A stretch of DNA of 64,000 nucleotides from a virus. Below are positions 12,383-41,361 of this stretch, piece after piece. Both the position numbers and the translations under genes were made by a program. Numbering within the stretch: the first letter of the stretch is position 1; every line of letters begins with the position of its first letter. The stretch covers positions 41,299 to 105,298 of the IMG/VR virus record IMGVR_UViG_3300037258_000375; one strand, given 5' to 3'. The notes under the pieces were generated by a model. That model searched no databases. It was not told the DNA's origin and was given only the letters and a program-made list of their open reading frames with translations.

Positions 12383-12880
12383 TCACGCCAAGTGATTGCG
12401 TGATCCACTCAGACTCCTGGGCGGTGGTCGTAGCCCCGCTTTACGTTCGTCGCGAAATCTTTGTTGCTTTTGCCGCTCACACTCTCTACATCTACGTGAT
12501 CCTTTTCGCGAGTCGATTATTAGATTCTCTCCCTCATAGGGATGACCGCGTGGACAGTGAGTTTTTCTGCTCTCTTTATTGTTTGTCACTAGGTCAGCAT
12601 TAAGAGCCTGCTCCCGAGGAGTTGCCCACCGACAGTTTTCAGCGGTGTAATCTCCATTATTGTTTTCACGATCTAATGTCTTCCCTGGTGGTCGTTCGCC
12701 CATGTCTGCATAAAAATTCGCGAAACTGTTCTGCCAGCGTTCACAAATCTTTATCCCACGTCCGCCATAGCGCGGGTATTTGTGGGATTTTGAATTGAGG
12801 CATCGTTCTTTCATTGCGCGCCACGAACGATACGTCCGCGTTTCTCCCTGCTTTCGCGTGCTGTGCCCATGTTTCTTCAT
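12383..12880 (-). CDS. HNH-type homing endonuclease
   Basis: Y.SW.AMK.RC..YGGRGI.IC.RW..F..F..DMG.RP...TLDR.NN.G.Y...NCRWA; KTHCPRGH. Confidence 0.88.
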   Translation of the reverse strand: MKKHGHSTRKQGETRTYRSWRAMKERCLNSKSHKYPRYGGRGIKICERWQNSFANFYADMGERPPGKTLDRENNNGDYTAENCRWATPREQALNADLVTNNKESRKTHCPRGHPYEGENLIIDSRKGSRRCRECERQKQQRFRDERKAGLRPPPRSLSGSRNHLA

Positions 12881-13647
12881 ATTGCCGACATCGGATCATC
12901 AAGTGTATGCTGCTGAGCGCGTTTCCAAAAGTCATGCTCATCTGCCCTGATAGCCAATAAGTCCGCCAACACTTGGTCTGATGGCGGATATACGCCCACG
13001 TGGGTGCCTTGATACCAGCCGAGACAATGGGAACACAAGGCTGCGAGAAAATGGAAATAGACCTTGTCCGCTTTTTTCTCCGGCTTCAGCGCGAGAGTGG
13101 GAAGGCCCTTGCGCAGGCAGTACATCACGCCAGAGCGCTTGCTCTTCTCCAGAAAGGCCCCGGCGAGAATGTAGCTGTCATGCTGCACTTCGTTGAGACG
13201 CCGGAGCAGTGCGCCCATGGCCTTCCACTCCGCAACGGGCTTTACCGCTCCGGCTTGGCAGATCATCGAAGTGATGTACATGTCGAGACGTTCGTTTGTG
13301 GTCACGAACTTCTCCACGATTGCGCCCTTCGAATGCTTCGCCACCGCGATTGTTTTTGGCCGCGTCGTCCAGACATTCACGACCATAGGCGAGTCGTCCT
13401 GCTCATCGACGTCCGAGGTGGAGCACACGCGCACTTCAGGAACGCCATTCATCGAGACAGGCACATCGTGACCGTGCTTGTCGGCAAGCGGGCAGCCCTT
13501 CGCAAGAACGATCTTGCGATCCTGGTCGAAGATGCTCACGATGGGCACGCCGTGGTGCCAGCCGCGCGCTTTGCAGAGTTCATGCACGCCGGATCGGAGA
13601 GATTCCCAGGTGAGTTCTCCCTTGATGGGCAGTAGGTCTGTGGCCAT
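12877..13647 (-). CDS. conserved LCxH protein, paralog of 20470..21123 (candidate Ubl partner enzyme)
   Basis: shares AE..A..L...L...Q...Y...G.F, LCxH, P..D....LL..R.DE..F...A with 20470..21123. Confidence 0.7.
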   Translation of the reverse strand: MATDLLPIKGELTWESLRSGVHELCKARGWHHGVPIVSIFDQDRKIVLAKGCPLADKHGHDVPVSMNGVPEVRVCSTSDVDEQDDSPMVVNVWTTRPKTIAVAKHSKGAIVEKFVTTNERLDMYITSMICQAGAVKPVAEWKAMGALLRRLNEVQHDSYILAGAFLEKSKRSGVMYCLRKGLPTLALKPEKKADKVYFHFLAALCSHCLGWYQGTHVGVYPPSDQVLADLLAIRADEHDFWKRAQQHTLDDPMSAI

Positions 13648-13648
13648 A

Positions 13649-14014
13649 CTATCCTCCACTTCGCGGCGCAATCGCCACCGTTCGTCCAGATTCCGGACTC
13701 ACTCTCCCATACGATGCCCTACGTGGCAGCCCCTTCGGCCTGCCACGGCCTTTCTTGCGAGGCACTGTCTCCACGGCTTCATCGGGAGTTTCCTGTGTGT
13801 CCAGGCGAATCATGAGCTTGTTCGTCACCGGATCGTAGCCCAACACCCTGTACGTGTGAGTCACATCGCCGATTTCCCTTTCGAGAAAGACGGCGGACCC
13901 GGACTTGATGAGATCGCCGACGAGCTTGGCAGCTTGCTTGCGGCCATCCTCGTTCGTTGTGTCGATCTCTGAGTTGTCATCGCCGGAAAAGCTATTGAGG
14001 ATTTGGATATTCAT
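13649..14014 (-). CDS. Gly-Gly-terminated small protein with AT-hook insert, paralog of 21564..21818
   Basis: ends APRSGG; KKGRGRPK; aligns by eye to 21564..21818. Confidence 0.7.
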   Translation of the reverse strand: MNIQILNSFSGDDNSEIDTTNEDGRKQAAKLVGDLIKSGSAVFLEREIGDVTHTYRVLGYDPVTNKLMIRLDTQETPDEAVETVPRKKGRGRPKGLPRRASYGRVSPESGRTVAIAPRSGG

Positions 14015-15147
14015 ATGACCACCTCTGAGTACAACACCCGTTCTATCGCGCTCGGTCCATGTGCCGTGATGGCCACAGGCACACGTAGGTTCGCCGCCAT
14101 CGAGTAGAGAAAATCAACTTCCGACTCACCGATACGTGGCAGGTAGTCTAGGTGGCTCACTGCGAGGTAATCGACACCGCCGATGATTCGGAGAGCCCGC
14201 CGCGCCATGTTGAAATCGAACTGCCCCACCCGAAACTTTCCCTGAAGCGAGCTATCGGAGTTGTGTAGCTCTGGCAAATCGAGCGCTGGGTCTTCGCTCG
14301 GGAACGGACCGGCACCGTGGCGCGTGTAATAGCTGCGCAGGCAGCCGACGCGGGTACGCTCTTTGACTTTCGCTTCATCGAGAAGTGTATTCGCATTTTC
14401 GAAGGTAGTGTTCGTCCAGGTGTTGTGCGGCGCGGTGCCGTACGTCTCATCGAGCATCACGCCCTGTGCGCCCTCAAAGACCATGCATTCTTCCGGCTTG
14501 AAGTGATCGACGATCTTGGCTGGCCAACTCTCGAAGTCGGCCATGGTCCGGCTGAGAACTGCTATGTCTTTGCTGCGATGAATGACGATGCCCAGTTCTT
14601 CCCGAAGCTTCACGATCTCATCGAGAAGCATATCCGAGATAAATGTGAGCTTACGGCGGAGCGTGACCAGATTCTGCGTGTCACCAGCGTAGGGAACATA
14701 GAGCGGGTGCTTTATCTGCATCTCTCGCGCCACACCGATGCCCATTCCGCAGCTTCCATGTCTTGCATCGCCGCGCGCCATCTCGCGAAGTTGATTGAGA
14801 TGCTTATGAAACGGCGTGACCAGGAGCGCTCTCTGATCGACTGTGGTGCGGTCCCATACGTCTCCCGCCAGATTTGAAAGCTCTTCTGCCTCTCGCATCA
14901 TCGACACCGGATCGATAACCATGTAGCGCGAGAGAAATGTCTTCACGTGCGGGTTCGCCAGTGTTCCCGCTCCAAACTGCGCGAAGGTGTGGTGGTCTCC
15001 CTCTGGAGTAACCACGTTGTGCGCCGCCTGAGAGCCGCCGTTATAGCGCACCACTAGATCGACCGGATATTCACGACATAATTTATCGACACATGCCCCC
15101 TTGCCTTCGTCTCCGAAGGCAAGTCCTGCCACAAGAAATGCTTTCAT
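14011..15147 (-). CDS. adenylosuccinate synthetase-like (PurA family) protein
   Basis: GDEGKG, RYNGGSQAAHNV, GSCGMGIG, EGAQG..LD, TRHGAGPFP. Confidence 0.9.
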   Translation of the reverse strand: MKAFLVAGLAFGDEGKGACVDKLCREYPVDLVVRYNGGSQAAHNVVTPEGDHHTFAQFGAGTLANPHVKTFLSRYMVIDPVSMMREAEELSNLAGDVWDRTTVDQRALLVTPFHKHLNQLREMARGDARHGSCGMGIGVAREMQIKHPLYVPYAGDTQNLVTLRRKLTFISDMLLDEIVKLREELGIVIHRSKDIAVLSRTMADFESWPAKIVDHFKPEECMVFEGAQGVMLDETYGTAPHNTWTNTTFENANTLLDEAKVKERTRVGCLRSYYTRHGAGPFPSEDPALDLPELHNSDSSLQGKFRVGQFDFNMARRALRIIGGVDYLAVSHLDYLPRIGESEVDFLYSMAANLRVPVAITAHGPSAIERVLYSEVVI

Positions 15148-15426
15148 TTATTCCCCCAGGTTCTTTATACACACCGTAAATGCAGTGAGCGGGCGGTTCG
15201 GCCTCCCGTCCGGGCGAAGCGGATGCGTGTCGCTGATCTGACGGTAGAAGGTCATAGCCTGCGCCCCATCGTCGAATCGCTTCGCCTCGGCGAGGTTGAA
15301 GGTCGTAGTGAGATCGCCATGGCCGTCGTGACCGTTAGGGTCGTACGTTTTCACATACGACCCCTCCAGTTCGGACGGCAATGACTCAAGCCCGCCAAGC
15401 CGTTCGATTTGGATAACGGCGCTCAC
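15148..15426 (-). CDS. hypothetical protein
   Basis: coupled ORF within operon. Confidence 0.55.
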   Translation of the reverse strand: MSAVIQIERLGGLESLPSELEGSYVKTYDPNGHDGHGDLTTTFNLAEAKRFDDGAQAMTFYRQISDTHPLRPDGRPNRPLTAFTVCIKNLGE

Positions 15427-16361
15427 AGACGTGCGGCCTTGCCTGCTCCGGACGTCGTCAGCGCAGCCGCCGCGTGCGCGCTGTGCTTCACCAGGGCATG
15501 TGCTTCGTGATCGCTCACGCCGACCGCAACCAGATCGTCAACGACCGAGTCTGCCGACTTCTCTTCACAGAGAGCGACGGTAGAGGCGATGAGTTCGCAA
15601 ATCAGGTTCGCGTGCTGCAACACAAGAACAGACTCTTCTCCGAAAAGCTTCTTGTATTGCTCAAACGAGTGCTGATAGGAACCGTGCGGCCAGATCACGA
15701 AAATGGTAAAGTTGCGGCGTGCTTCTTCGATGATCTCTGCGATGGGGATGTCGGCCTGGATGGTATCGCCGAACACAGCGTGGACATGCTTTTTCCCCAC
15801 TTGATCGAAGATCGGCTCGTCTGCGAACATGAAGAAGTATCCCTTCTTGTCACGCTTCTCCAGGCAATCGAGGCTGACCTTGCGCGCCGCCGCATAAAGC
15901 AGCAGATCGTAAGACTCGCCGTGATTAGAGCCGCCTTGGCCGACAAGCCAGATGTTCCGGATGTGCTCATCCACGCGGATATCGCTCTCGAAGTCCGAAA
16001 TCTGGATGCAGTTCTTGCCGACAGAAAAGAAGTCGTCGTTCGCGGCAACGGCAACTTGCGGGTCCGGCAAATACTTATTCAAGAGGTCCATGAGGTTCGG
16101 GAGCTTCTTCTGCGCATCGACGGCGCGGTCGTAGTTCGAACCGGTTACGTCGAACGCGACCAGCACTGCATTCGATGTCGGATGCTCAGCGGAATCCCGC
16201 GATTCAAGCTTGCCGACAGGCTTTGTGTTAATACGCATCGGGTCCAGGTTCGCATGAACCGAACTCGCGGTTGTTGTGTAGGCAAAGTCTGGCGTGCCTG
16301 AAGCACGACGACTTGAAGTTGTACTGTGATATGTACCTGAGTCCCAGCGGCCACCGCCCAT
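15423..16361 (-). CDS. vWA-like domain protein
   Basis: MGGGRW start; FDVTGS MIDAS-like motif; GGSN.GESY; KKGYFF...DE. Confidence 0.8.
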   Translation of the reverse strand: MGGGRWDSGTYHSTTSSRRASGTPDFAYTTTASSVHANLDPMRINTKPVGKLESRDSAEHPTSNAVLVAFDVTGSNYDRAVDAQKKLPNLMDLLNKYLPDPQVAVAANDDFFSVGKNCIQISDFESDIRVDEHIRNIWLVGQGGSNHGESYDLLLYAAARKVSLDCLEKRDKKGYFFMFADEPIFDQVGKKHVHAVFGDTIQADIPIAEIIEEARRNFTIFVIWPHGSYQHSFEQYKKLFGEESVLVLQHANLICELIASTVALCEEKSADSVVDDLVAVGVSDHEAHALVKHSAHAAAALTTSGAGKAARL

Positions 16362-16373
16362 GATTTCCTCCGC

Positions 16374-17417
16374 TTACGTCGGCAAGTTGAATGCGATCCA
16401 CTTCGGAGAGCCGTACTCCTTAGCAGCCGCCTCTTTCCAGTCCTGCAAAACATCTCCAGCTTTCTGGTAGCGTTTCTTATAGTCAGAATCGAGGCACTTC
16501 ACAAGAATTTTTCCCAAGGCGGGCATCCACAACGATCCGCAAAGATACACCATCAACTTCGCGGCCATGTAGATGTCCGAAGCAGGGCCGATGTACTTCT
16601 TAGACAGAAGCTCTGGCGCATAATGGTCCTGCCACGCCGGAATCCAGGATGACAGTCTTGTCCGCTCTTCGTAATTGACTGAATAGCACCAGTCGATCAT
16701 CCGGATGGAGTGCTTGCGTGGATCGACACCGGAGCCTCCGTCGTTATCTGGATAGAACATAACGTGTGGCGGAAGGATCGCCCCATGCACCAGCCGGAAG
16801 TGATGTGTCCATGTCAGTACAGCCAAAATCCTCTTAAACATCCAGACGCCGGTTCGCGTGTCAACATTCTCGATCTTCACGTGAACTTGCTGCGCGGTCA
16901 CGAATCCTGAGAAATTCGTGATGACGTTCGCCTCGCGCTTCATCGTTGCCTCGATCCAGAAGTTGTCGATTAGCACAGGTACGCCTTCGCGGATCGGCCC
17001 GTCAATCTTGCTCAACGCTTTGAGTGCGACGATCTCCGCCCTAAGAAGGTCGTTGTCATCGTGATTTCTCGCAACCTTGATGAGTTCCTTGCCGCCTTCC
17101 GTTGTGTAGAGATCGGCGATGTCGCCGATGCGTGGGTGCGGCTTGGCGTTGTACTTACCGATCTTCAGAGGAACGCAGTGGGGGAGCGGAAGACGCTTGC
17201 CCCAATTGCCTTTCCTTACTCGAATATCGGCCTCATTCTTCAACGCGGAGAGTTGCTGGAACACTTTCGCAGCGAGCGGCTCTGTCGGATGAAAGTCGGG
17301 GTGACAAGACCGCGCGAGCTTCCTGAAGACCACAGACGGATCATCTCCCGATCCGAATACATCCTCCGGACAGCACGCGCTCTCCAGCTTATCGTGCATC
17401 AATTGCAATTCGCTCAT
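16374..17417 (-). CDS. J-domain / Ser-Thr kinase-like fusion protein
   Basis: FRKLARSCHPD; HGAILPPHV, IDW, YAPE, SDIYM. Confidence 0.8.
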   Translation of the reverse strand: MSELQLMHDKLESACCPEDVFGSGDDPSVVFRKLARSCHPDFHPTEPLAAKVFQQLSALKNEADIRVRKGNWGKRLPLPHCVPLKIGKYNAKPHPRIGDIADLYTTEGGKELIKVARNHDDNDLLRAEIVALKALSKIDGPIREGVPVLIDNFWIEATMKREANVITNFSGFVTAQQVHVKIENVDTRTGVWMFKRILAVLTWTHHFRLVHGAILPPHVMFYPDNDGGSGVDPRKHSIRMIDWCYSVNYEERTRLSSWIPAWQDHYAPELLSKKYIGPASDIYMAAKLMVYLCGSLWMPALGKILVKCLDSDYKKRYQKAGDVLQDWKEAAAKEYGSPKWIAFNLPT

Positions 17418-18077: not shown

Positions 18078-19409
18078 CTAGAAGCTACCGCTATCGCCTC
18101 CGAAGCTACCGCTATCCCCGCCTCCGAAGTCCGATGAAGATGACGAGTCGCTGAAGCTGCTACTGCTGCTGTCGTCAAAGCCGCTCGATGACGATGAATC
18201 GCTAAAACTACTGCTACTGCTGTCATCGAAGCTGCTCGATGACGACGAGTCATTCCAACTGCTGCTCGATTCCTCTCGAACCGCGACCGGCTCCGGCTCT
18301 GGAACGAAGACGGGCTCGATGATGGGAACAATGACCGGGCTGGGGCCATAATAACCATCGTCGATGTACGCTGGCCGAGCAGGGGCCTTATTGATGATCG
18401 TCGTATTCGTCACAGACGGAGACGCTGCCGGAGCGGCCTGCGGAGGGGTTGGAGGTGTAGGGCCGGGTTTCGGAACGTCGGGATCAGGATTGCCCGCAGG
18501 AGCGGTAGAGTGGCCGTCGCCGGAATGCCTCGAAGCACTACGATCAAACCGGAACTTGCGCGAAGCTTGAGCTACTTCCGCATCGACTTTGTCGGCAATC
18601 CACTTATAGCGCTTCCCGATCTCCTCGTACTCCTCGATGTCGAGACCTTTCGTATCCGGATTGAAGGTCTCGCTCTGGTTCAACCGGGAGAACTCCTCCG
18701 ACAATGCGTAGTTAGTGCTGTTGATGATCTTCCCCGCCGCCTCGTTCCGCCATAGCACCGCTTGTTGCTGCGCCAGGAGACGCTTGCGCCGGAAGTTAAA
18801 CAGGGCGAGAATACCGATCACGCAACAACCGAGAAGGATCGCGCCAAGCAACCAATCCAGCCATCTCCAAAGTCCGGACATGTCTGTTGCTTGCTTGGTA
18901 ATAACGGTGGTGGCCGGATGTAGAGCCGCCGTTTGAAATGCTTCGATCTGCACTGCGGCTTGAGACATACCGGCAATCATGCCCCGTGTCCAGTCGCCGT
19001 CTCGGAAGGCGGGAGCCATGAACTGCGTGCGGATCACAGACGTATTGAGTGCCCGTCCGAACTCGTTCCCCACAAACAACCCCGCCGCGTGCCGCTTCGG
19101 GAACACGAGGAACACGATCAGGTTGTTCTTCACTCCTCCGCTGGCCGATTGCCACGATGGACACTCCTTCTGTAGTGTGGCGACGTACTGCTCGGGCGTG
19201 GTCTTGGAGGTGTCATCCAAGATCACGCGCGGGTCGGCACCCTTCGCCGCGAGCATAGAAGCAGAATGAACAAGCGCATCACCCTGACCGCTCCTGAGAA
19301 GCGATGACGGGTCCGCGAAAACTGGCGAGTCGCACGAATGCGAAAACACTTGACTCCAGCCCATGGAGGCCAGAGCCACAAATATGCAGGCGATCAAAAC
19401 TCGTCTCAT
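18078..19409 (-). CDS. TPM (DUF477) domain membrane protein with Pro-rich linker and Ser/Gly-rich tail
   Basis: signal peptide; M.PAFRDGDW..G; TM helix; DSSSSS repeats and FGGGDSGSF end. Confidence 0.8.
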   Translation of the reverse strand: MRRVLIACIFVALASMGWSQVFSHSCDSPVFADPSSLLRSGQGDALVHSASMLAAKGADPRVILDDTSKTTPEQYVATLQKECPSWQSASGGVKNNLIVFLVFPKRHAAGLFVGNEFGRALNTSVIRTQFMAPAFRDGDWTRGMIAGMSQAAVQIEAFQTAALHPATTVITKQATDMSGLWRWLDWLLGAILLGCCVIGILALFNFRRKRLLAQQQAVLWRNEAAGKIINSTNYALSEEFSRLNQSETFNPDTKGLDIEEYEEIGKRYKWIADKVDAEVAQASRKFRFDRSASRHSGDGHSTAPAGNPDPDVPKPGPTPPTPPQAAPAASPSVTNTTIINKAPARPAYIDDGYYGPSPVIVPIIEPVFVPEPEPVAVREESSSSWNDSSSSSSFDDSSSSSFSDSSSSSGFDDSSSSSFSDSSSSSDFGGGDSGSFGGDSGSF

Positions 19410-19459
19410 GGAACTTCCTTTCACATCGAGCATTCGAGGGAGGGTTTCCGTGTGGTCGT

Positions 19460-20119
19460 TTATTTCAGTGACGCGAGAAGGGCATCCACTTCAGGGCTGT
19501 TCGCGTTCGATGGTTGAGGCGTTGTGGTGAGTGCCCGGTCAAACTCAGCGCTGGCTACATCGTTGTGGCGGCGCATTCTTTGCTCCACATCATCGACGGA
19601 TTGATTGCCATCAAAGCCAAGTGCGGCATTCGCTTGGGTCAACGCGGAAGCGGCCTGATGCTTTGCCTTCGTGTCCATATCCAGGCGTTCGAGTTCACGC
19701 ACGCGAGCAACCATCAACTGATGCTTCGCGTTCAACAAATCGGCGGACTCCTTCAGCTTGGCCACCACGGTCTGTTGGTCGGTGATGTCGGTACCCATCT
19801 TCGTGAAGTGCGTCGTCTCTTCGACGATGTTTGCGGCCTTCATCCGCGCTGCCTGAGAATTGGGATCGGCAATGAGAATGGCCTTGACTTCCTTCTTCTG
19901 TGATTCAATTTGATTGCCGAGGTCCTGGTATTCGCGGGTGAGCGTACGCAGTCCGCCATCCTGCGCAGCGATTTCGGTATTCATCTTGCCCATCGCGTCT
20001 TCGAGATCACGGCAATACTGACGCACGGCAGATGGTGAGTTCGCGTCAATCTCTTTATCCAGCAGATCATGTGCTGCACCCAGCGTGACGACGCGAAGCT
20101 TTTGCAGAAAACCAGTCAT
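19460..20119 (-). CDS. PspA/IM30 family coiled-coil protein
   Basis: 219 aa coiled coil; D.NSP....QY.RDLE; C-terminal VDALLASLK. Confidence 0.75.
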   Translation of the reverse strand: MTGFLQKLRVVTLGAAHDLLDKEIDANSPSAVRQYCRDLEDAMGKMNTEIAAQDGGLRTLTREYQDLGNQIESQKKEVKAILIADPNSQAARMKAANIVEETTHFTKMGTDITDQQTVVAKLKESADLLNAKHQLMVARVRELERLDMDTKAKHQAASALTQANAALGFDGNQSVDDVEQRMRRHNDVASAEFDRALTTTPQPSNANSPEVDALLASLK

Positions 20120-20159: not shown

Positions 20160-20438
20160 TTACAGTGCCGCTGCTAATTCGTAATCTTCCGCCAGTAGAT
20201 CACTCTGAGAGCACGCCCACGGTACGACGGTTCCCTGATAAGTCATCATGTCTACGTGCGACTGATACTGAATCTCCGTCCCTTCGGGATAGATACCCAA
20301 AAGCGGAAGTCGGTTCACCTGGAACTTAGAGCCCGGAACCAGGAACAGATACATTCCCTTCCCGTTCCAGCCAGCCCGACATACCCGCTCGCCGCTTTGC
20401 AACTGTTCGAGTGCCCATCCTAATCCTTGCTTCTCCAT
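20160..20438 (-). CDS. DUF2829 / Tad2-like anti-defence sponge protein
   Basis: AL..L..G..V.R.GWNGKGM.L.L ... VPW..SQSDLLAED. Confidence 0.85.
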   Translation of the reverse strand: MEKQGLGWALEQLQSGERVCRAGWNGKGMYLFLVPGSKFQVNRLPLLGIYPEGTEIQYQSHVDMMTYQGTVVPWACSQSDLLAEDYELAAAL

Positions 20439-20469
20439 TGATTTTTCCTTCCGCCACAACTGTGGCTGG

Positions 20470-21123
20470 TTATGCTGCTAGTCGAGTGCGATTTGCTATT
20501 TCAAGAAATTTCTTCTCATCGGTGCGCAGCATCAAAAGCTGCGATACCATGTTATCCGCATCCGGCATCCACTCCGACGGATGCGCACACAACCGCAAGA
20601 TCGGTTTGCCCTTCTCGATCTGCTCGATGTTTTGCGACCGCTCCTTCTTGATCCGGTAGATGCGCTCGTTCACATGGGTCTCGAAATAGCCATGGTCTCG
20701 ATACTGCCGAACCTGTTCTGGCTTGAGGATCGTAAACATCAACTGCTCGGCGCGCGCCTCCGCGATCTTTCGCTTTTCGGCTGCCTCGAAACGTGCCGCT
20801 TTCTCTTCGGCTGACTCGGGCGGTTGGCATCCAAGCCCAAGAATGGAAATCATTTGGTTATGATTGTTATTCATCATCTGGCTGTACATCATCTGGCTGT
20901 ACCAGATATTGGCGTTCGAGACGGTTACATAAGACATAGATGTGCCTGTCCCCCCACCTATTGCATAGGCAGAGTCCGCACTCTTCGACGCGCCCCCGAG
21001 CAGCTTTGACCAGTTATTGCTCATTTGATCCACCATCGCTTGCGCGCCATAGGCAGTCCTCGCGCCCTTCACATCCGATCCGTTCAACGCTTTTGAAATC
21101 CACGACTCCGATTTATATGGCAT
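20470..21123 (-). CDS. conserved LCxH protein, paralog of 12877..13647
   Basis: AEARAEQL...L.PEQ..QY...GYF; LCAHP..P..D.M..QLL.L..DE..FL..AN. Confidence 0.72.
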   Translation of the reverse strand: MPYKSESWISKALNGSDVKGARTAYGAQAMVDQMSNNWSKLLGGASKSADSAYAIGGGTGTSMSYVTVSNANIWYSQMMYSQMMNNNHNQMISILGLGCQPPESAEEKAARFEAAEKRKIAEARAEQLMFTILKPEQVRQYRDHGYFETHVNERIYRIKKERSQNIEQIEKGKPILRLCAHPSEWMPDADNMVSQLLMLRTDEKKFLEIANRTRLAA

Positions 21124-21556
21124 TGTCGCTCGCCTTCATCATTCTTTTTGCTTTGTCGAGGAAGGTTTGCTCATCCTTCTTGGGAGGCCATCCGTTGGGA
21201 TCGGACGGTACGAACATCTCCTGGGCCACGACAACCTGCTTGCTAGTTTGTATGCCAAGACATGTGATCTTCCGCACGAAGACGCGCCTCAGACCGCCCA
21301 TCTCCTTCAACTCCTGCTCGTTGTAGAAGACGTGAAATCCGGGAGCATACGGCTTCGAGTCTAATGCGGTGATTTTTTTCCCTGGAGTGTGTTCGTCTGT
21401 GGCGGTGATCCATTTATCCAGCGGCACGTCTGCCGATTTGGCGATGGTGAACTGCTGGAAGGTCGGCTTCCTCGCGGTGCCGCCGAATTCCTTCCAGGCA
21501 TCCATGATGAGGCCCGAAGGATTATCGTATGTCTCTTTGACTATGGAGAGGCACAT
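21113..21556 (-). CDS. hypothetical protein (Y..GFH motif)
   Basis: operon-embedded ORF. Confidence 0.6.
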   Translation of the reverse strand: MCLSIVKETYDNPSGLIMDAWKEFGGTARKPTFQQFTIAKSADVPLDKWITATDEHTPGKKITALDSKPYAPGFHVFYNEQELKEMGGLRRVFVRKITCLGIQTSKQVVVAQEMFVPSDPNGWPPKKDEQTFLDKAKRMMKASDNAI

Positions 21557-21563
21557 AGCTCAA

Positions 21564-21818
21564 CTAACCCCCGATCATGCGCGCATGAAGAATTATGCGT
21601 TCGGCGGTCGGATCGAACGCATTGAGAACCTCACCCTGGTCGCCTTTTTTGCTGACCGAGTAAGCGAGGTAGCCTTTGGCTTTTAGCTCATTGAAACGCG
21701 CTTCCGCCTTGGAAACTTCGGCTGGGTTGTTGCGATCCCATTGCATCCGGGTATCGCCTGTGTCATCGAGTATGTTGAGTTCTCCCCCGTGGGCGCGGTC
21801 AATGATTTCTAGTTCCAT
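21564..21818 (-). CDS. Gly-Gly-terminated small protein (ubiquitin-like candidate)
   Basis: 84 aa ending MIGG; GGAG RBS; first gene after TTGACA promoter near 21896. Confidence 0.72.
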   Translation of the reverse strand: MELEIIDRAHGGELNILDDTGDTRMQWDRNNPAEVSKAEARFNELKAKGYLAYSVSKKGDQGEVLNAFDPTAERIILHARMIGG

Positions 21819-21921
21819 TGTCTGTCTTCTCCCGAAGATTGAACGATTTACCTATAGCTTCCCAATAGTCTGCGCTATCCGGGATGGGCTGTCAAGAAAA
21901 ATTGCGCCCATGATGCGGATG

Positions 21922-24834: not shown

Positions 24835-25335
24835 TCATGGAAGCTCCGTTCCTTTCGGAAAAAATAGCTGTGGTGCATCCGTGTACGCTTCGCGGACCGG
24901 ATGCACCGGATTCCCTGCTTTTGAACGACGGATGCAGTAGAGATCGCGATAGTTCAACATGTTCACCACGTCTCTATCCCGCGAAGTCATCCACTGCGAA
25001 AACGCATCCACATTATCACCCCACGCACACACAACGCTATGGGCCATCTTGGCTTCACGGTCGAGATGGGCTGTATTGTCTTCACCAATCGCAAGGCGGA
25101 ATCCGCCTTCACGCATAAGAAGCGTCTTCAGGTCTTTGGGATTGGTCGCGCGATAGGCGAAAAGATTGGTCACGACCAAACCGCAATAGCCCCACCGTTT
25201 CGCAAACCCCACACAGCGGCGGATTGTAGGATCGTCCGTCACATCGTCGGCAGTTGACGGATTGAGCATGATGAAGTTCACAACCCCGCCGTTGCCCATC
25301 CAGCTACGACGCAGTGTGTACCGGTGCTCGTTCAC
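24835..25335 (-). CDS. DUF1643 family protein
   Basis: RY.L.R.W, FIMLNPSTAD...DDPTIRRC..FA..WGY, NLFA.RAT.P, AWG, P.HP. Confidence 0.9.
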   Translation of the reverse strand: MNEHRYTLRRSWMGNGGVVNFIMLNPSTADDVTDDPTIRRCVGFAKRWGYCGLVVTNLFAYRATNPKDLKTLLMREGGFRLAIGEDNTAHLDREAKMAHSVVCAWGDNVDAFSQWMTSRDRDVVNMLNYRDLYCIRRSKAGNPVHPVREAYTDAPQLFFPKGTELP

Positions 25336-25766
25336 TTTTTTGACTCCTGGCCGCGCCGAAATGCTTCGCGAAGCCGTTCATTGAGCACCTCCGGCTTGAA
25401 AAAGCCGCTCTCGATATCAGGAAGGATCAAGTCTTTGATCTCCTCCGACACTTCCGGTTTCGGCGCGTCGTATCGCTCGTAGAGTCGATTTCCGCAGAAG
25501 ATCAGGATATCGACGAAACTTATGTCGCTTAATTCGCTCCATTGCGCCGTAAATTTATTCCACTCTTTGAGTGAGCGGGTATACCACGGTTCAGGCATCC
25601 GCTCCGCGTTTGGCGCGGTGCTCCAATTCTCTTTCTGCCAGCGCAAAGCATCGTAAAGAGCGCTTTCCGCAATCATCTTGTCGTGAAAATTATCCCTCAC
25701 TTCAGACAAGACCGCTCTCAACATTCCTTGGGGAACATAGACGTTTGGTTTTTTTGATTCACTCAT
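25332..25766 (-). CDS. hypothetical protein, paralog of 54921..55406
   Basis: shared VP..ML, YDAP.PE...EI.DL, EAFRRGQ. Confidence 0.65.
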   Translation of the reverse strand: MSESKKPNVYVPQGMLRAVLSEVRDNFHDKMIAESALYDALRWQKENWSTAPNAERMPEPWYTRSLKEWNKFTAQWSELSDISFVDILIFCGNRLYERYDAPKPEVSEEIKDLILPDIESGFFKPEVLNERLREAFRRGQESKK

Positions 25767-27232
25767 GCCACATCCTCCTCGTCGTCATTGCTCTGATAGG
25801 AAAGGTGCCCCTGGTAGTCTGGCGTCGGCTTCGCCCCGGAGCACCATAGCGCAGTTTTTGGGTCCTTCCAAAGAGCCACATTGCAGGGCACACCGAAACG
25901 CTGTTTGGGAATGATCCCCGCGCCTTCATCGGTGAAATGACCTTGCTCCTCGTCGTACTTCAAATGCAGCAGGAGAACAGTCGCGGCGTCGTTCTCGATC
26001 TGGCCACTCTCGCGAAGCCGGTCCATCGTCGGCAAGGTGCTCATACCACCAGACCGGCTCAACTGCGACAGGATGACATTGCGGCACTTCGTGCCCTTGA
26101 CGAGATCGGCGTTGCTTGTGCTCACACGTCCGATCTTCAGACGTGTGTCATCGTTCTTGTCCGCGTTCTTTACCTTCATGCGTTGGAGGTAGTCAATCGC
26201 GCTCAACTCAATTCCATGGCGGTGCATCGCTAGCCGTTGATGCGCCAGTTGCTCGTCGAGCGTCATGTTGCTGTTGTCGTAGATGAAAAGGTCCCACTCG
26301 GCCACTTGGTACTCCGCCCAGGTCAACTGATCTCGCTCGGCCTTTGTGGCCAGCCACGGCTTGATCGCTGCGGTATAGCGCACGTTGCCGACAATCGACC
26401 ACAGACGGCGCAGAAAATCATGCCGTGTTGGCTCAATCAAAAACAAAGCTGTGGGGTGACCCTTCGGACAGTTAGCGGCGACGATCTGTGCCAAGATGGT
26501 GGTCTTACCGACGCCTGAAAAACACCCGATAACAACTTGCTCGCCCTCTTGAATTCCACCTGTGGCATCGTCGATGGCAGGCACGCCGTAGCTGAATCCA
26601 GGAGATTGCGTCAATTGCGCTTGAGCGAGGAAACGGTCCATCACCTCTTGCGAAAGCTCGGCGGCAGAGACAAGGCCGCGTTGAATGCCGCCCGCGATGA
26701 TCCTCTCAAGCTCGGCGGCGTGCCACGTAGCCACGGAGAGCGCCGTCTCGGATTGATCCGCAGCTTTGGCGATAGTTAAACTCGAAAGACCCATGATCTG
26801 GCGCGCGAGGCTCTTGTCTTTCACGATGCGGATGTATTCCTCAATCACCGGGCGGCGCGGCATCCCTTCTGTGAGGGATGCAAGATAAGCGACTCCTCCA
26901 ATCGCCTCAATCTCCTTGTTGACCCGAAGCTCGTTAGCGAGCGTCACAATGTCAACCGCGTGATTGGCATCCATCAGGTCTTTCATGCGAAGAAAAATAC
27001 GCCGATGTGAATCCAATGAAAAGTCATCGGCTTTGAGTTTCTCGGATGCTTCGAGATATGCTTCATTGTCGAGTAAGATCGCACCGAGAATTGTTGTTTC
27101 CGCCTCAATGTTTGCGGGGAGCCCAACTTCAAGTGTGAGATCAGGTATGGAGTTGGAGTAATTCTCCCGCTTCTCTTCACGCGGCGGCTCCGGAGCTTTA
27201 TCTGGAACCCGATAGTTGTTAACGTCTTCCAC
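25763..27232 (-). CDS. dnaB: replicative DNA helicase
   Basis: P.N.EAE..ILGAILLDN N-domain; GVGKT, IDYLQ, LSQLSR, LRESGQIE.DA, KQR.G. Confidence 0.93.
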   Translation of the reverse strand: MEDVNNYRVPDKAPEPPREEKRENYSNSIPDLTLEVGLPANIEAETTILGAILLDNEAYLEASEKLKADDFSLDSHRRIFLRMKDLMDANHAVDIVTLANELRVNKEIEAIGGVAYLASLTEGMPRRPVIEEYIRIVKDKSLARQIMGLSSLTIAKAADQSETALSVATWHAAELERIIAGGIQRGLVSAAELSQEVMDRFLAQAQLTQSPGFSYGVPAIDDATGGIQEGEQVVIGCFSGVGKTTILAQIVAANCPKGHPTALFLIEPTRHDFLRRLWSIVGNVRYTAAIKPWLATKAERDQLTWAEYQVAEWDLFIYDNSNMTLDEQLAHQRLAMHRHGIELSAIDYLQRMKVKNADKNDDTRLKIGRVSTSNADLVKGTKCRNVILSQLSRSGGMSTLPTMDRLRESGQIENDAATVLLLHLKYDEEQGHFTDEGAGIIPKQRFGVPCNVALWKDPKTALWCSGAKPTPDYQGHLSYQSNDDEEDVA

Positions 27233-41009: not shown

Positions 41010-41361
41010 ATGGATGGACAGATCAGCAAGTACGACCGGGTACGCGGCGGTCTTCATAACGTCGCGATGTTTACCAGGGCGAGCACAGTCAAAGACCGTG
41101 CAAGCCATCACCGGCAAGTCAGAAACGTTCGTCGTCGAGACAGCGCGGTTCGAAGACGAGGGAGATACCATCTTCATTGAGGCGCTCGATGAGAATGGCC
41201 TCACACGGCTCGCACTTCCACCAAAGGTTGCTGCGCTCATTGCTTCCCAGCGTGACAGTTTGACGGCGCGCCGCCGCTCGAAGGCCGCACAGCGAATTGC
41301 CCAGGAGCGCAAGGACCGAGGTGAGCTACCAGGGTTCATGCGCAAGAAGAGTACTGAATAA
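41010..41361 (+). pseudogene. hypothetical gene with apparent +1 frameshift at 41091-41093
   Basis: GGAGG RBS plus MDGQISKY..ASTV continues as KTVQAITG.. in next frame. Confidence 0.55.

Follow-up and report, generated by a model that had tools for sequence, protein, structure and literature searches.

Can two small phage genes, one encoding a protein that ends in Gly-Gly and the other a protein with a Cys motif, work as a ubiquitin-like (Ubl) modifier and its acceptor? The question is raised by positions 20470-21818 of a 64,000-nucleotide (nt) stretch of DNA, hereafter the window, which covers positions 41,299 to 105,298 of the IMG/VR virus record IMGVR_UViG_3300037258_000375 and thus forms part of a 105-kb record of an uncultured soil phage, 89% complete. 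The original prediction, made from the letters of the window, had placed here the second copy of a phage Ubl module, in which an 84-amino-acid (aa) Gly-Gly-ended protein (the GG protein) and a protein bearing the motif LCAHP (the partner) would act as a functional pair. The region proves to be a conserved, self-contained module, the two genes of which stay together in phages and in bacterial chromosomes. Judged from predicted structures, it would represent an unannotated and widespread arrangement of a Ubl with an E2-type fold, for which a mechanism may be proposed. Our search of the literature returned no description of the GG/partner pair.

Every gene between 18078 and 21818 lies on the minus strand, and the genes are close-set. 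Seven nt separate the stop codon of the GG gene from the ATG of a middle gene, which in turn overlaps the partner gene by 11 nt. The open reading frames (ORFs) of the module, as they stand in the ORF list, and the predicted parts of the partner are the following:

21564-21818, minus strand: GG-ended ORF, 84 aa, ending in ARMIGG followed by the stop codon
21113-21556, minus strand: middle ORF, 147 aa
20470-21123, minus strand: partner ("LCAHP") ORF, 217 aa, containing RLCAHPSEW
20812-21123, minus strand: N-terminal half of the partner, low-complexity
20473-20811, minus strand: C-terminal domain of the partner (residues 105-217), predicted coiled-coil helix plus compact UBC/RWD-like helix, four-strand, helix core

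The small protein belongs to a large family ending in Gly-Gly

The terminal Gly-Gly of the 84-aa protein is not there by chance, since all 17 of its close homologues (60-81% identity) terminate exactly in GG, and, among the 150 best cluster representatives in its family, 137 share this end. In a profile search against 1.84 billion cluster representatives, this family comprised 2184 clusters at E ≤1e-3 and 614 at E ≤1e-10, and the alignments reached the last residue of the protein in nearly all matches. Several other members of the best 150 have GG followed by one to nine further residues (GGA, GGAA, GGNA, GGL, GGR, GGCR and one with nine), an arrangement that resembles that of Ubl precursors. 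In a few, the end is AG, SG or KG, and three are tandem repeats. Searches of Pfam, NCBIfam, PHROG and PDB by sequence and profile returned no match to the GG protein, and no domains were found in the N-terminal extensions of longer members when these were checked for fusions of the Rosetta-stone type. Weak matches to BTRD1 in nine of 120 family members (E ≥0.027) were dismissed as noise.

An AlphaFold2 (AF2) model of the GG protein, built from 120 diverse members of the family, reached a predicted local distance difference test (pLDDT) score of 82.6 and has secondary structure elements in the order b-b-a-b-b-b, with a six-residue flexible tail after the last strand (mean pLDDT of residues 80-84, ~63). 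The leading Foldseek rows for this model were all beta-grasp domains (UBX, RA, PB1, SUMO, FAT10, ISG15 and bacterial Ubl), with probabilities of 0.9-0.98 and E values never better than 7e-3. VIA-align placed protein L B1 first (Z 5.8-6.2), followed by GB1 and the Raf RBD at about Z 5 and by PB1, TBCB-Ubl, Ddi1-UBL, BubA, TtuB and MoaD at Z 3.3-4.9; the Z scores of the GG protein, like those of the partner given below, fall under the level that VIA-align calls trustworthy. On the model, the GG protein is thus predicted to be a beta-grasp protein with a tail of ubiquitin-type geometry. The term "ubiquitin-like" used in the original prediction is borne out with regard to the beta-grasp fold and the free flexible tail, but it holds at the level of the fold only.

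The partner has a predicted UBC/RWD-like domain with an invariant Cys

Homologues of the partner align over about 100 C-terminal residues only. Their N-terminal part is not conserved in sequence and is always unusual, being of low complexity and rich in G/S/N/Q/M/Y or Q/N/Y/T/W in the phage proteins, and consisting of one hydrophobic (transmembrane) helix followed by basic residues in those of Chloroflexota. The latter arrangement suggests that the bacterial partner is a cytoplasmic domain tethered to the membrane. Among 40 partners aligned from phages and bacteria (residues are numbered as in the 217-aa protein), Tyr156, Cys179, Asp190 and Ala210 are invariant, and Arg157, Pro182, Pro187, Glu203 and Asn211 nearly so. 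While Cys179 is kept in 40 of 40, the residue at the His of "CAHP" may be H, Q or L, the motif reading C-x-H-P in the phage clade of the window, C-[LV]-Q-P in bacteria and C-F-L-P in others. A catalytic Cys-His dyad or triad was accordingly rejected because this His is not conserved, and of the Cys-x-His idea that the LCAHP motif had inspired, the Cys alone survives. Neither was an HPN motif found in the partners, in which no conserved Asn follows the Cys motif.

The AF2 model of partner residues 105-217 (pLDDT 93.9, predicted TM-score 0.83) shows a long helix, a short helix, four strands, an eight-residue loop and two helices. In the secondary structure of the model, strand 4 ends with Cys179, which stands eight residues before the next helix. 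The best matches in an exhaustive VIA-align search were the RWD domain of RWDD2 (2daw, Z 5.5) and Ubc9 (4y1l, Z 5.2, root-mean-square deviation 3.1 over 83 residues), followed by the GCN2 RWD (Z 5.2) and the UEV-like domain of VPS37A (Z 4.5). Further RWD and UEV domains, FANCL, Knl1, BubCD, Cap2, CdnG-E2 and many E2 chains occupied the lower rows, such that RWD, UEV and E2 chains filled about 30 of the 50 best. We read the partner domain as a probable compact UBC/RWD-type fold, the list of matches being thematically uniform and the individual scores weak.

The resemblance to RWD domains also bears on a different explanation of the pair, according to which the beta-grasp protein would bind the RWD/UEV-like domain non-covalently, as an adaptor or regulator, with the GG and the Cys serving recognition or structure. 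Such a role would fit the catalytically inactive RWD domains that are the best structural matches (2daw, Z 5.5; 2yz0, Z 5.2), the RWD-like length of the loop between strand 4 and helix 2, and the long coiled-coil helix preceding the domain, which recalls dimeric coiled-coil-plus-RWD proteins (the Mad1 CTD was among the Foldseek rows). Inactive RWD-like domains are, moreover, thought to bind Ubls in operon type 6e of an earlier survey (PMC1779556). A purely structural Cys, however, is not expected to be invariant across phages and bacteria at 27-40% identity, and the exact GG end, seen in >90% of the family, together with its precursor-like extensions, is the signature of C-terminal chemistry. 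We hold non-covalent pairing to be rather unlikely.

No family was found for the partner by sequence or profile searches of Pfam, PHROGs, NCBIfam or PDB, and the ESM Atlas yielded only unnamed, mostly viral clusters. No fused long partners were found among proteins of at least 572 aa. In BFVD, the partner retrieved homologous hypothetical phage proteins and a single weak match outside these, to a 397-aa protein of the cultured jumbo phage Atu_ph07 of Agrobacterium (A0A2L0UZL2; Foldseek E 1.2e-2, TM 0.67, over the partner domain); tblastn revealed no sequence match to the partner in Atu_ph07. Should this structural match be real, Atu_ph07 could supply a cultured system.

The C-termini of the phage partners differ from those of the bacterial ones. 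Across the 51 phage partners of loci L001-L011 and L041-L081, 21 end in -AA, eight of these in -LAA, including the 217-aa partner itself (TRLAA at its end, 20470-20478), versus one of 20 bacterial partners ending in -AA. In the ssrA-type signal for ClpXP, a C-terminal LAA forms the core, and these ends suggest that the phage versions of the partner may be made short-lived through an ssrA-type degradation signal.

The two genes are strictly linked in phages and bacteria

With patterns specific for the close family, the partner was found downstream of the GG gene and on the same strand in 11 of 11 phage loci. A second scan of phage sequences, with a pattern common to diverse members, gave 41 further loci at 36-57% identity; in 39 of these, the partner overlapped the GG gene or started within a few bases of its stop codon, and in the other two the contig ended just after the GG gene. 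All 50 informative phage loci therefore have the partner behind the GG gene, often with a gap of 0-4 nt or an overlap. Of 23 bacterial loci, 20 showed the same arrangement, the two genes often overlapping by 4 nt. One of these loci is labelled Planctomycetaceae, and the rest are labelled Ktedonobacterales, Ktedonobacteraceae, Chloroflexia or Chloroflexi/Chloroflexota, apart from one metagenome-assembled genome of a Dictyobacter sp. The proposal of a functional pair is supported by this linkage (11/11 plus 39/39 informative viral loci and 20/23 bacterial loci).

No other gene accompanies the pair to a comparable extent. Upon clustering of the neighbouring ORFs of 46 non-redundant phage loci, no other family was present in more than six loci, antisense artefacts set aside. 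In many soil phages, the module sits in a variable accessory region. Bacterial neighbours were ordinary, including FakA-like, DegV, FMN-dependent dehydrogenase, MFS transporter and DUF3090 genes and, sometimes, a gene for a double zinc-ribbon protein. In several loci of Ktedonobacterales type (L024, 2943-3755; L030, 1137-1976; also L021, L026 and L029), the last of these is the gene immediately upstream of the GG gene, and its product of ~270 aa carries the double zinc ribbon at the C-terminus (PF12773, E ~1e-8). Among these double-zinc-ribbon loci are all three bacterial ones that lack a partner behind the GG gene. One annotated GenBank record, that of Virus Rctr197k, carries the pair, with the partner again behind the GG gene and both genes called hypothetical. 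In a tblastn search of 50,697 GenBank phage records, only two metagenomic records were retrieved, and no cultured phage had the pair.

The make-up of these loci is also informative with regard to sulfur transfer. The classical role of GG-ended beta-grasp proteins in prokaryotes is that of sulfur carriers (PMC1779556), TtuB and MoaD were among the fold matches of the GG protein (Z 3.3-4.4), and the partner has a single invariant Cys. The pair might thus be a sulfur carrier of the ThiS/MoaD/TtuB type, the GG end being adenylated and thiocarboxylated and the partner Cys relaying a persulfide for a thio-modification of, for instance, tRNA or a cofactor. Yet no gene for a PP-loop ATPase, MoaE, a ThiG-like protein, a rhodanese or an E1 was linked to the pair in the loci examined, the predicted fold of the partner is UBC/RWD-like rather than rhodanese-like or TusA-like, and the GG family lacks sequence similarity to ThiS and MoaD. 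Sulfur carriage is, in our estimation, improbable.

The pair is part of the core genome of one Chloroflexota class

The distribution of both families was surveyed in the GTDB class of Chloroflexota that holds one of the bacterial loci. Of 81 genomes sampled, 76 had the GG family and 78 the partner, in one to five copies each (74 and 76 of 79, respectively, when the unpublished genomes G070 and G080 are left out), and the matches to the two families were mostly side by side. An even sample of the whole phylum Chloroflexota gave the GG family in 26 of 121 genomes (25 of 120 without the unpublished genome G229), and Planctomycetota in 2 of 101. The two genes thus form part of the cellular core of one Chloroflexota class and are sporadic, probably phage-borne, elsewhere. 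Since both families occur in ~95% of the sampled genomes of this class, the pair is not a phage-specific anti-defence device.

A third gene accompanies the pair in the phage clade of the window

The gene between the GG gene and the partner, which the original prediction had listed as one unknown gene, is indeed present at this position, but it is not an interloper. Each of the ten closest phage loci (L001-L010) encodes a homologue of the 147-aa protein, again flanked by the GG gene on one side and the partner on the other. In a 176-kb phage (L085, 1623-2944), the order is GG gene, partner, middle gene, and the three-gene neighbourhood is kept. The 147-aa protein is therefore a third component that this phage clade conserves (11 loci, two gene orders), and its gene belongs to the unit because the linkage is kept while the gene order changes. 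The protein had no match in Pfam, PHROG, NCBIfam or PDB, and in the ESM Atlas it found viral hypothetical-protein clusters only, such that its family is confined to viruses in these searches. A reading of its Met-Cys-Leu start as that of an Ntn or Hint-like protein found no support, one homologue having Arg at position 2 and the protein having no family match.

The window carries a second, diverged copy of the module

A further pair is encoded in the window, some distance downstream of the first on the same strand:

13649-14014, minus strand: copy-1 GG-ended protein, 121 aa, with a basic linker inserted before the tail
12877-13671, minus strand: copy-1 partner, 264 aa, with the motif LCSHC (LC.HP in orthologues)

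Orthologues of this copy-1 pair were found in two related phages, and their GG proteins also end in GG; in one of these phages, the small protein has 93 aa and still ends in GG, and the motif of the partner is LCLHP. BLASTP of copy 1 against copy 2 (the module at 20470-21818) gave no hit between the GG proteins and, between the partners, nothing better than E 1.4-2.1, and the copy-2 GG profile matched the copy-1 GG protein in register at E 7.5, which is not significant. When alignments of three copy-1 sequences were compared by hhalign with the copy-2 families, in contrast, the GG proteins matched with 84.7% probability (E 6.7e-6, 64 columns) and the partner domains with 94.4% (E 8.9e-8, 92 columns), Cys being aligned to Cys, versus 0.7% and 0.4% in cross-comparison controls. 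With such scores against controls below 1%, the paralogy proposed for the two copies passes a comparison of profiles; support is moderate for the small protein and good for the partner.

Several other phages hold two partner-family genes, namely L047 (5228-5863 and 8201-8986), L076 (5322-7113) and Virus Rctr197k (BFVD A0A1P8DIP4 and A0A1P8DIR1), and a phage genome with a duplicated module is thus a recurrent finding. Next to copy 1, a PurA-like gene, encoding a shortened paralogue of adenylosuccinate synthetase (PF00709, E 4.6e-53), lies directly upstream of the GG gene and overlaps it by 4 nt. It is preceded by genes for a vWA-like protein and for a protein with weak J-domain and kinase matches, the whole covering 14011-17417. 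The PurA-like gene is kept beside copy 1 in a related 134-kb phage (L017) and not in a 179-kb phage (L016).

A ubiquitin-like transfer with activation from elsewhere is the favoured reading

Several results weigh against any Ubl-type chemistry of the pair. Within the phage record, neither a ThiF-type E1 nor a Prok-JAB match was detected at E values up to 1, the positive controls of both searches working, and no E1-like or JAB gene was found within 4-5 kb of 46 viral and 23 bacterial loci. This absence of an E1 and of a deubiquitinase (DUB) from the record and from the vicinity of the loci would also suit the non-covalent pairing considered above. A long HPN...Cys loop is part of the canonical E2 topology; the loop between strand 4 and helix 2 of the partner is of RWD length instead, and Cys179 seems to lie off the canonical E2 position, as far as the secondary structure of the model tells. 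None of the 40 partners matched a UQ_con, RWD, UEV or Prok-E2 profile at E up to 10, nor did any of 120 GG family members match a ubiquitin-type, ThiS or MoaD Pfam family at E up to 10. Foldseek against PDB gave no usable match for the partner domain, and the fold scores of both proteins are modest (Z ≤6.2 for the GG protein, ≤5.5 for the partner). Finally, protein L and GB1 are no worse matches to the GG protein than Ubls are, and the structural evidence, as judged from the model, does not single out Ubls among beta-grasp domains.

We nonetheless favour a ubiquitin-like transfer, wherein the Cys of the partner would receive the activated GG tail and activation would be provided by an unlinked (host) E1-type enzyme, because the family-wide GG, the precursor-like variants, the coupling to a UBC/RWD domain and the invariant Cys are hard to explain otherwise. 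Our confidence in this reading falls a little short of even. An E1 that is unlinked or that belongs to the host is possible for the pair. In the mechanism that we envisage, the function of the 84-aa beta-grasp protein would rest on its free and flexible Gly-Gly C-terminus. The carboxylate of this terminus would first be adenylated by an E1-type enzyme that the module does not encode and that, in the phage, would be a host enzyme of the MoeB/ThiF family. The activated tail would next be passed to Cys179 of the partner to form a thioester, and the partner would then hand it to a target. In the phage clade of the window, the 147-aa protein (21113-21556) might serve as a cofactor or as a substrate of this transfer.

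A more far-reaching version of ubiquitin-like transfer may be entertained as a speculation that we ourselves think doubtful. The pair would here constitute a third and minimal kind of prokaryotic Ubl conjugation system, with no dedicated E1, E3 or DUB, made of the GG protein and a tethered mini-E2 of ~100 aa with the proportions of an RWD domain. It would be a core component of one Chloroflexota class, where an N-terminal helix would anchor the mini-E2 in the membrane, and would have been borrowed repeatedly by soil phages, often as two diverged copies, for the tagging of host or phage proteins early in infection. If this were true, the anchoring of the mini-E2 to the membrane would allow an attachment to membrane components similar to that carried out by Atg8 and Atg3.

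Downstream genes and the region upstream of the module

The genes that follow the module, and a hexamer that precedes it, are given below:

20160-20459, minus strand: Tad2-like (DUF2829) gene (Pfam PF11195, E 2.6e-20, 73.2 bits versus a cut-off of 25)
19460-20119, minus strand: PspA_IM30 (PspA/IM30) gene (Pfam, E 7.2e-9)
18078-19433, minus strand: gene for a membrane protein with a TPM domain (Pfam, E 1e-4)
21890-21895, minus strand: TTGACA hexamer, possible -35 box, 71 nt ahead of the ATG of the GG gene

All of the genes listed in the original prediction, from the 84-aa GG-tailed ORF through the unknown gene and the LCAHP gene to the Tad2-like, PspA and TPM genes, are thus present on the minus strand. 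With a score above the gathering threshold of PF11195, the product of 20160-20459 is a Tad2-like protein and a putative sponge. The anti-defence and membrane-stress context that had been read from these neighbours, on the other hand, found no support, in that it is not conserved elsewhere and the two families of the pair are near-universal chromosomal genes in one Chloroflexota class. Tad2-like, PspA and TPM genes adjoin the module in none of the other loci, and because of their absence beside other modules, this context is particular to the phage of the window.

The Tad2-like gene directly downstream in the same gene run nevertheless invites a further explanation, namely that the pair is a counter-defence decoy of Ubl and E2 type which jams host Bil, Bub or CBASS Cap2, and which would fit a place beside a Tad2-like sponge. 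Location of the module in variable accessory regions of so many soil phages is compatible with such a decoy, and the -AA ends of the phage partners (21/51, with 8 in -LAA, versus 1/20 in bacteria) suggest a phage-specific control of turnover. What speaks against it is that no other locus has a Tad2-like, PspA or TPM gene close to the module, that sequence similarity to components of Bil, Bub or Cap2 is lacking, and that both genes, in one Chloroflexota class, are near-universal, multi-copy and neighboured by housekeeping genes (FakA, DegV, IDI-2-like). This near-universal chromosomal occurrence points to a cellular function borrowed by phages, and we deem a decoy very improbable.

As to expression, the original prediction had made the GG gene the first gene after a TTGACA promoter. 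This is borne out in part. The hexamer is present, in a 103-nt gap upstream of the GG gene that is the sole sizeable gap of the gene run. The remainder of a promoter is poor: 17 nt past TTGACA, CAGACT agrees with TATAAT at three of six positions, with no good -10 box, and a consensus promoter scan called no promoter at 21895-21890. Farther along the same gene run, the ORF translations of 24835-25335 and 25763-27232 indicate a DnaB-type replicative helicase (489 aa) and small conserved ORFs.

Comparison with known systems

The survey of prokaryotic Ubl operons by Iyer, Burroughs and Aravind (2006) describes Ubl genes that are accompanied by E1-like enzymes and JAB peptidases (PMC1779556). Among its operons, type 6e has an inactive RWD-like E2 fold and type 6c a conserved Cys in place of the His of HPN, and a Ubl/E2 dyad devoid of an E1 is not included (PMC1779556). 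Types 6c-6e, now known as Bil and Bub, resemble the phage module in having a small beta-grasp protein with a C-terminal Gly beside a protein of UBC fold, a fold that is predicted in the case of the module, and BubA and BubCD chains were found among the fold matches (9eav, Z 3.8 and 3.2). They differ from it in that their operons always carry an E1-like enzyme and a JAB or other peptidase, neither of which is present in the phage module, and in the lack of any detectable sequence similarity. Unlike Bil and Bub, furthermore, the module resides in phages and Chloroflexota chromosomes rather than in defence islands.

The sulfur carriers and E2-independent modifiers ThiS, MoaD, TtuB and SAMP resemble the GG protein in being small beta-grasp proteins whose Gly-Gly tail is free. 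Activation by a shared, unlinked E1-type enzyme is established for TtuC and archaeal UbaA, and the GG protein could be activated in a like manner. None of these systems, however, has a Cys partner of UBC/RWD type, and the module differs from ThiS and MoaD in having no profile match to them and no biosynthetic partner genes linked to it. The eukaryotic E2, UEV and RWD domains (Ubc9, the UEV of Tsg101, the RWD of GCN2) are the best structural matches of the partner, with which they share the predicted core of a helix, a four-strand meander and a helix. The similarity is limited to Z scores of 3-5.5, and the partner domain is much shorter, with ~75 core residues; as opposed to E2s, it is devoid of HPN and has its Cys at the end of strand 4 instead of in the active-site loop.

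A ubiquitin-like protein is already known from phages in the form of the tail assembly protein I (TAPI) of lambda and T1, whose Ubl domain has a conserved C-terminal Gly and which works with the JAB peptidase of TAPK (PMC1779556). Both TAPI and the GG protein are phage-encoded beta-grasp proteins of ubiquitin-like type. TAPI, though, is a product of the tail cluster that carries a second, fused domain, and its partners are JAB/NlpC peptidases, whereas the module occurs amid early or accessory genes and couples the GG protein to a UBC/RWD-like one.

The known prokaryotic Ubl systems fall into two groups, sulfur carriers that consist of a Ubl and an E1, and defence operons that comprise a Ubl, an E1, an E2 and a DUB. 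A very large family of GG-ended beta-grasp proteins strictly coupled to a mini UBC/RWD-like protein with a single invariant Cys, and with neither E1 nor peptidase, would represent a new architecture next to these two and a candidate phage tool for the manipulation of the host that current annotation has missed. The module bears on the origin of E2-type chemistry and on the minimum machinery that tagging requires, and the Chloroflexota class and the soil phages provide, respectively, its cellular and its viral setting.

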